A DNA stretch of 64,000 nucleotides. It comes from Rickettsiales bacterium (GTDB lineage Bacteria; Pseudomonadota; Alphaproteobacteria; Rs-D84). The stretch spans positions 20,978 through 84,977 of the forward strand of contig JAISKV010000001.1 in NCBI GenBank assembly GCA_031260805.1, read 5' to 3'. The translations under genes and the position numbers were made by a program. The notes beneath the pieces are model-generated. The model was not told where the DNA came from and did no database searches. It was given only the letters and a program-made list of their open reading frames with translations. The first letter of the stretch is position 1. Each line of letters begins with the position of its first letter. Shown here piece after piece: positions 51,586 to 51,624 of this stretch.

Positions 51586-51624
51586 CCCCCCCCCCCCCCG
51601 TTCGTACAAAATAATATTTTGTAC
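51586..51624 (+). promoter_or_regulatory. homopolymeric poly-C tract (about 14) followed by perfect 10-1-10 palindrome GTACAAAATAATATTTTGTAC
   Basis: Located about 65 nt upstream of the start of the hypothetical gene at 51691. Candidate slipped-strand phase-variation tract plus a dimeric-regulator operator. Confidence 0.4.

Follow-up and report, generated by a model that had tools for sequence, protein, structure and literature searches.

What could an uninterrupted run of 14 cytosines, followed within a few nucleotides by a perfect 21-bp palindrome, be doing ahead of an apparent orphan gene? The question is raised by a 64,000-nucleotide stretch of DNA (the window, whose coordinates are used throughout) from an alphaproteobacterium of the Rickettsiales (Rs-D84 in the GTDB lineage; assembly GCA_031260805.1, contig JAISKV010000001.1, positions 20,978 to 84,977 of the forward strand), an uncultured organism represented by a metagenome-assembled genome (MAG) and present in one sample only. 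The gene, LBO08_00455, lies on a contig of 186,599 bp and encodes the 244-aa protein MDR0803548.1. Our answer, which we hold tentatively and at somewhat less than an even chance, is that this is an independently transcribed orphan whose leader contains a slippage-prone C14 tract and a candidate regulator-binding dyad, rather than a gene controlled by a promoter-spacing switch.

The C14 tract, the palindrome, and the orphan gene

G/C homopolymers are otherwise avoided in this genome, which makes the C14 tract an extreme outlier. No other C or G run in the window exceeds 6 nt; a first-order Markov model predicts about 8e-6 C runs of at least 14, and G runs of at least 6 are themselves depleted (1 seen versus 17 expected under the Markov model). 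At a cutoff of at least 7, the count of G runs is 0 versus 4.6 expected; A and T runs get to 9 to 10 nt, as in A10 at 30107-30116 and T9 at 4614-4622. Reading along the plus strand, ATTTTA precedes the 14 C's, which are followed by GTTC, GTACAAAATAATATTTTGTAC, and ATATTTTTCTG; the minus strand accordingly carries G14. G/C homopolymers of about 9 nt or more are slippage prone, and by this established knowledge C14 is long enough for slippage; it likewise falls within the range of G/C homopolymers (about 8 to 9 nt or more) that are counted as simple sequence repeats. A single GANTC site (GATTC), the CcrM methylation motif of alphaproteobacteria, lies at 51570-51574, between the predicted transcription start and the tract, an occurrence that is compatible with chance.

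The same tract length was recovered in two assemblies. L001, a Logan contig assembled independently from run SRR14710919, matches the window exactly along its whole length (51580-52517) and includes C14. A second Logan contig from the same run (L010), which holds the skp gene, exactly matches the window at 47354-51195, and both its end at 51195 and the 3' end of L001 fall within repeat arms. The tract that the original prediction put at about 14 C's directly upstream of the palindrome is exactly C14, and the palindrome, which it placed about 65 nt before the 244-aa open reading frame (ORF), is correctly positioned, with 67 nt measured between its end and the ATG at 51691. A scan of JGI metagenome contigs for tract-length variants, using the flanks joined by an N{4,30} pattern, gave 0 matches, and look-ups of spurious minus-strand ORFs for Logan contigs covering the left flank had nothing on record.

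The palindrome has a perfect 10-1-10 architecture with the half-site GTACAAAATA. The window contains 23 perfect palindromes (arms of 10 nt or longer, loops no longer than 4 nt) versus 0.8 in Markov simulations, most of them being terminators whose cores are G+C rich. The genome is generally rich in perfect palindromes, and GTACAAAATAATATTTTGTAC is less exceptional than the tract; it is the most A+T rich of the 23 (19% GC) and has no G+C core. Elsewhere in the window are long perfect A+T-rich palindromes that also lack G+C cores, one of 34 bp at 11176-11209 and one of 40 bp at 46393-46432, the latter ending 13 nt before a secY-like ORF at 46445.

The dyad symmetry of the 10-1-10 palindrome fits the 14 to 22 bp typical of operators, and in this respect the proposal that it is the operator of a dimeric helix-turn-helix (HTH) regulator stands. 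Other signs of such an operator were sought and not found. The window has no second copy of the palindrome at up to 3 mismatches, and no regulator gene adjoins it, the neighbors being skp and gapR. The nearest HTH-like ORF, a 107-aa HigA/XRE-like one at 63342-63665 recognized by eye only, lies 12 kb away. Palindrome scans of public genome and metagenome contigs retrieved 8 loci in 5 distinct contexts, which are unrelated chance copies, none with poly-C. From its symmetry, the palindrome is possibly a protein-binding dyad or operator. The alphaproteobacterial LexA box (GTTC-N7-GTTC), the Fur, NrdR, and TyrR boxes, the CtrA site (TTAA-N7-TTAA), and sigma-54 and sigma-32 promoters were compared by eye, without formal testing, and none of them fits.

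On the evidence of database searches, the downstream gene is a true, lineage-specific orphan. Among 5.8e9 clusters and 1.84e9 representatives, read exhaustively, its product retrieved only itself; no significant match was found in Pfam, PHROG, NCBIfam, PADLOC, or PDB, and no paralog occurs in the window. The ORF does look coding. Its codon score is 0.255 in frame versus -0.56 and -0.63 off frame, the in-frame value being at the low end of the range for the genome (0.25 to 0.60). Its G+C content at third codon positions (GC3) is 0.47, versus 0.54 to 0.67 in 23 reference genes of the window, with a similarly low value (0.46) in the adjoining gapR-like gene. The protein is hydrophilic, has a basic pI of 9.2, and shows no signal peptide or membrane segment by eye. 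A single-sequence AlphaFold2 (AF2) model is all helical at low confidence (pLDDT 54), and a structure-based assignment of function was abandoned because this value is too low for a fold search. Within the gene, an internal 27-nt direct repeat of 78% identity (51777-51803 and 51843-51869) encodes a repeated ...QKLYA... segment. The orphan makes up a self-contained unit, for it has its own terminator and Shine-Dalgarno sequence and is preceded by a promoter-like site (Table 1).

Table 1. Features of the orphan locus and its immediate neighborhood, in window coordinates
Feature	Coordinates	Strand	Basis or remarks
Skp/OmpH-like chaperone gene	50472-51113	+	Pfam PF03938 OmpH, E 8.8e-15; last gene after rpoA-rplQ
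Strong bidirectional intrinsic terminator of skp	51109-51145		17-pair stem plus T run; -21.6 kcal/mol, z -5.8
Large imperfect palindromic repeat element, ~380 bp	51139-51522		Heptamer repeats at both ends
P1 promoter match, TTGCAA-16 nt-TATAAT	51523-51550	+	10/12 sigma-70-type match; 0.094 expected in shuffles of the spacer
Hypothetical 18-codon upstream ORF, MKWLDSNNFTPPPPVRTK and stop	51558-51614	+	Translation; post hoc; may be leaderless
C14 homopolymer	51586-51599	+	Run count, Markov model, Logan contig L001
A+T-rich palindrome GTACAAAATAATATTTTGTAC	51604-51624		Candidate protein-binding dyad; weak RNA hairpin
Predicted leader hairpin GUUUCGGGG...CCUGAAAC	51648-51677	+	In minimum-free-energy structures; just 5' of the Shine-Dalgarno
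Shine-Dalgarno AAGGAG	51679-51684	+	Sequence; predicted unpairing; 6 nt before ATG
Orphan gene, 244 aa, MDR0803548.1	51691-52425	+	Codon signature; database searches; AF2
Orphan gene intrinsic terminator	52433-52457	+	7-pair G+C-rich stem (to 52449) plus T8; -15.2 kcal/mol
Nested inverted repeats and terminator-like hairpins, ~555 bp	52454-53008		Inverted-repeat pairs
Convergent gapR-like gene	53006-53260	-	GapR Pfam PF10073, E 6e-27

Promoter geometry and the role of the tract

The position of the best promoter match relative to the tract is what sets our preferred reading apart from a classical spacing switch. P1 is the only sigma-70-type match of at least 10/12 in the 577-bp spacer, and it directly adjoins the 3' end of the palindromic repeat element. 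Its predicted transcription start is at about 51557/51558, and its -10 hexamer ends 36 nt before the first C of the tract. Canonical matches of similar quality precede other genes in the window; therefore, the organism appears to use such promoters. The region before the gene at 60591 is built alike, with a repeat arm, heptamer repeats, and then the gene. With P1 as the promoter, the tract would occupy about +29 to +42 and the palindrome about +47 to +67 of a leader of about 134 nt. No sigma-70-type match of at least 9/12 spans the tract, and, as judged from the predicted promoter, the tract does not lie between the -35 and -10 hexamers in the manner of porA, tp0126, or hif.

Since the tract is downstream of both P1 hexamers, slippage cannot alter their -35/-10 spacing. 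The original prediction had slippage vary the spacing of promoter elements; the predicted geometry, with the best match wholly upstream of both tract and palindrome, speaks against this. It had also named a transcription start upstream of both features among the results that would count against it, and this is where the start of P1 falls, as far as a promoter match can place it.

On the basis of this arrangement, we propose that transcription would begin at P1, just past a repeat element of a kind typical of the genome, and that C14 and the dyad would be transcribed within the leader, ahead of an accessible Shine-Dalgarno sequence and the ATG. The tract would slip during replication, making the locus hypermutable, and would thereby constitute a spacer of variable length between P1 and the dyad. 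The dyad, if it is bound by a dimeric regulator, would serve as a promoter-proximal roadblock. Slippage may also act through the leader itself, by way of the frame of an upstream ORF (uORF) or of leader length. We expect the effect on expression to be graded or modulatory at most, with no clean transcriptional ON/OFF switch. The proposal draws support from Bordetella, Neisseria, and Treponema pallidum, whose populations vary in long G/C tracts situated close to promoters, with consequences for transcription (PMC1891110, PMC2791445, PMC7864442). It is plausible that the locus is a putative simple-sequence contingency locus, of a well-known kind in an unusual lineage.

Several observations weigh against this proposal. 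P1 is a consensus match only, with a chance expectation of about 0.09; its 16-nt spacer is suboptimal, and its distance to the ATG, 141 nt, compares with 29 to 63 nt for most credible matches in the window. Should P1 prove spurious, the tract could occupy the -35 of an activator-dependent promoter. That an unbroken C14 persists where G/C runs are otherwise depleted speaks for selection on the tract and for a stronger role than that of a mere spacer. Finally, the Logan contig that covers the orphan gene begins 6 nt short of the tract, at a sequence with no other copy in the window. This break could stem from read heterogeneity or from low coverage near the tract, and it hints at poor read support across it. 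Breakage at a bubble formed by C13, C14, and C15 variants was considered as its cause, but de Bruijn reasoning would put such a break at about 51587 and not at 51580, and we leave the position uninterpreted.

A different reading is modeled on published poly-C promoters. The poly-C of Neisseria meningitidis opc encompasses the -35, and the C-stretch of the Bordetella fim genes sits between an activator site and the -10 (PMC1891110; PMC7864442). The present locus shares with opc and with Bordetella fim2, fim3, and fimX an uninterrupted poly-C of comparable length a short way upstream of a gene. The fim tracts extend to C19, and tract length alters transcription in these systems (PMC1891110; PMC7864442). 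By analogy, the orphan could be subject to transcriptional phase variation from a weak, activator-dependent promoter, with the poly-C at or abutting the -35, a -10-like hexamer inside or just past the palindrome (TAATAT at 51612-51617 or CATATT at 51624-51629), and the dyad as a repressor operator over the -10 and +1. Slippage would then shift the distance from upstream A+T-rich or activator sites to the -10 and so toggle transcription.

We regard this as doubtful, while granting it a real chance. The 14-nt length and the presence of a -10-like hexamer 12 nt past the tract resemble the published poly-C promoters, the resulting leader of about 62 to 74 nt is nearer the 29 to 63 nt typical of the window, and the A+T-rich segment TAATAATTTTA lies immediately 5' of the tract. 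The selection suggested by so long an uninterrupted tract in a genome poor in G/C runs would also be in keeping with it. However, the candidate promoters are of low information: TTCGTA-17-CATATT scores 7/12 and TAATAT comes without a -35, so that both are under the scan threshold, and -10-like hexamers occur in any A+T-rich palindrome. The far better promoter upstream would read through, and no activator site or regulator gene was identified. Whereas the opc and fim tracts lie inside mapped promoters, the best promoter match here is wholly upstream of the tract, and the known surface structures encoded by opc and fim contrast with the orphan, cytoplasmic-looking protein encoded here.

Two further systems resemble the locus in part. 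In Neisseria nadA, which is controlled by NadR, a slippage-prone tract likewise lies near the operator of a dimeric repressor, and operator spacing there depends on the length of the tract, with graded expression as the result (PMC2791445). There, however, the repeats are TAAA units upstream of the core promoter, accompanied by three mapped operators and an IHF site, as opposed to one candidate dyad downstream of a predicted promoter. The tpr and tp0126 poly-G tracts of T. pallidum offer the parallel of an uncultivable, host-associated bacterium in which G/C homopolymers upstream of genes vary and modulate transcription, the tract lengths having been compared in Escherichia coli reporter assays (PMC7864442). 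These tracts differ from ours in being 7 to 11 nt long, in being placed either directly ahead of a mapped start or between the -35 and -10, and in occurring many times per genome as against once in 64 kb.

We found no description in the literature of homopolymer phase variation in Rickettsiales. If the tract varies and changes expression, the locus would represent simple-sequence contingency switching in an uncultured Rickettsiales-like alphaproteobacterium, and the expression of the orphan would be under fluctuating selection, as might apply to, e.g., a host-interaction factor. The locus also flags a site at which a MAG consensus may hide population heterogeneity. It is plausibly an ordinary candidate slippage switch of modest practical value.

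Less likely readings: an upstream ORF, an artifact, and RNA-level control

A hypothetical ORF in the leader suggests a translational role for slippage. The ATG at 51558-51560 lies 8 nt past the -10 hexamer of P1, with C-A at -1/+1, and opens an 18-codon uORF (Table 1) in which TPPPP is read from the C tract and the stop, a TAA at 51612-51614, coincides with the middle triplet of the palindrome. If the P1 mRNA is leaderless and starts at A51558, then the length of the tract modulo 3 would set the stop of a poly-proline uORF. As computed for C10 to C18, the stop stays at 51612-51614 for C11, C14, and C17; it moves 20 nt further on, to a TGA at 51634-51636, for C10, C13, and C16; and for C12, C15, and C18 it is a TAA at 51689-51691 that overlaps the orphan's ATG as TAATG. 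The overlap would give translational coupling, and slippage would tune translation or the protection of the leader. A rough post hoc estimate puts the chance of a 30-codon open frame ending in TAATG at about 0.01 to 0.02, and the suitably placed start and the frame that is open through the tract also favor the idea.

Nevertheless, we judge it improbable. It is wholly post hoc, and all frames of a C tract read proline. The orphan has its own strong Shine-Dalgarno sequence, predicted to be about 83% unpaired at any tract length, so that coupling is unneeded; the use of leaderless mRNAs by this organism is an assumption. Poly-proline is a ribosome-stalling motif that depends on elongation factor P (EF-P). 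A stronger version, in which the leaderless poly-proline uORF would be a heritable, reversible three-state translational switch with EF-P-dependent stalling, is conceivable from the sequence and has a slimmer chance still. The closest precedent is Salmonella mgtP in the mgtCBR leader, a proline-rich leader peptide that senses EF-P or tRNA-Pro; its mechanism involves alternative RNA stem-loops, and no hypermutable homopolymer encodes it. While both are short uORFs with consecutive proline codons, no alternative structures are predicted at the present locus, and translation of its uORF is hypothetical. Fusion of an upstream ORF to the gene, as a form of translational phase variation, was rejected on account of the TGA at 51634-51636 in the gene's own frame.

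It is very unlikely that the tract is an artifact, with a true tract that is shorter or a junction that is chimeric through homopolymer miscalling or poly-G read tails. The source is a MAG known from one sample, and a Logan contig that begins only 6 nt before the tract means that read support there may be thin. A chimera or poly-G tail is nonetheless unlikely because both flanks agree in two assemblies: two different assemblers returned an identical C14 with matching flanks on both sides. The left flank, moreover, runs into the layout of a repeat followed by a promoter that is expected from other loci, and poly-G tails would, by reasoning, produce tips at contig ends and not internal tracts with unique flanks.

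Readings that invoke RNA structure, attenuation, or a small RNA have little support. A tract in the leader, predicted to be about 72% unpaired, could in principle be the target of a G-rich small RNA or a loading site for Rho if P1 is used, and the palindrome could form an AU hairpin that, with its U-rich tail (AUAUUUUUCU directly follows it), acts as an attenuator. The precedent for the former is Helicobacter pylori tlpB, in which RepG targets a length-variable homopolymer that is likewise inside the 5' leader (PMC8295292). In tlpB, however, a G-repeat is paired by the C/U-rich loop of the small RNA, whereas here the repeat is of C, and the window offers no G-rich partner, there being no G run longer than 6 nt to pair with the tract.

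As RNA, the palindrome forms a weak hairpin that contains just 2 G-C pairs. Together with a second small hairpin, it lies in the 41-nt segment 51600-51640, for which the predicted fold is -7.5 kcal/mol versus -15 to -22 for the terminators of the genome, and the palindrome hairpin is absent from the output of the terminator scan. By the genome's own standard, the predicted hairpin is too weak for a terminator. An attenuator or intrinsic terminator was rejected on these grounds, with -15.2 and -21.6 kcal/mol for the local terminators, and because the fold is independent of the tract. The predicted leader fold is unchanged for C12 to C16, as is the unpaired probability of the Shine-Dalgarno sequence, by which we rejected an effect of tract length on Shine-Dalgarno accessibility. 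The whole leader is no stabler than its own shuffles (z 0.37). A gathering-threshold scan of the window with Rfam 15 detected only a tRNA at 876-948, and a permissive Rfam scan of 51100-53300 gave only subthreshold matches of the hairpin type, which fell on terminators and inverted repeats and left 51557-51690 uncovered; a riboswitch or leader RNA was rejected for want of an Rfam match and of a fold better than shuffles. RNA-level control is accordingly the least likely of the readings considered here.

Genomic surroundings

The orphan lies between the end of a ribosomal-protein cluster and a convergent gapR-like gene. The 74-nt arms of the palindromic repeat element before it (51157-51230 and 51439-51512) are 82% complementary, and one arm of the element is 94.5% identical to 60425-60477. 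The gene had been described as an insulated accessory cassette bracketed by terminators and repeats; the two terminators and the repeats on both sides (about 380 and 555 bp) bear out the bracketing, but the repeats are not specific to this gene. Similar palindromic elements with heptamer arms recur across the window, in no fewer than 8 intergenic regions, some of them between ribosomal-protein genes, and they appear to form a repeat family that is spread through the genome. The regions are 11075-11288, 25332-25415, 40843-40974, 43013-43155, 44834-44903, 51139-51522, 52428-53008, and 60116-60421. Their arms consist of tandem heptamers, e.g., (AAGGTTT)n facing (AAACCTT)n, (AAGAATT)n, and (TTCAGAG)n, often with a perfect palindrome between them. 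We also considered whether direct repeats delimit a mobile cassette. The modules of terminator and heptamers that follow skp and the orphan are 73 to 85% alike, but such modules are generic in the genome, and the idea was rejected.

The neighborhood was also compared with that of relatives. A search of GTDB species genomes for the Skp-like neighbor gave nothing, and the closest L17 proteins are about 72% identical. The corresponding loci of relatives (L011 to L014) have other genes after rplQ, a GC content of 38 to 40%, and no G/C tracts. Large ORFs without a Pfam match are present in L011 (8578-11820) and L013 (4003-6776 and 8671-11355), directly after rplQ and between rpsK and rpoA. Lineage-specific genes of this clade thus seem to have a hot spot at the ends of the ribosomal-protein cluster.

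Several other features of the window merit mention. Three 120-nt copies that are 82 to 98% identical (37248-37367, 38505-38624, and 42566-42685), each with a small terminator-like palindrome and heptamer repeats, lie between ribosomal-protein genes within the S10/spc cluster, which is normally tightly packed. An ORF of 1,323 aa at 16224-20195 has a signal-peptide-like N terminus, 120-nt tandem units at 17757-18083, and a perfect 90-nt duplicate at 18716 and 19901, 1,185 nt apart; from these sequence features, it may encode a repetitive surface protein. An ORF at 25418-26410 resembles a tyrosine integrase, as judged by eye only, and together with the HigA/XRE-like ORF noted above it hints at mobile or addiction modules in the window.

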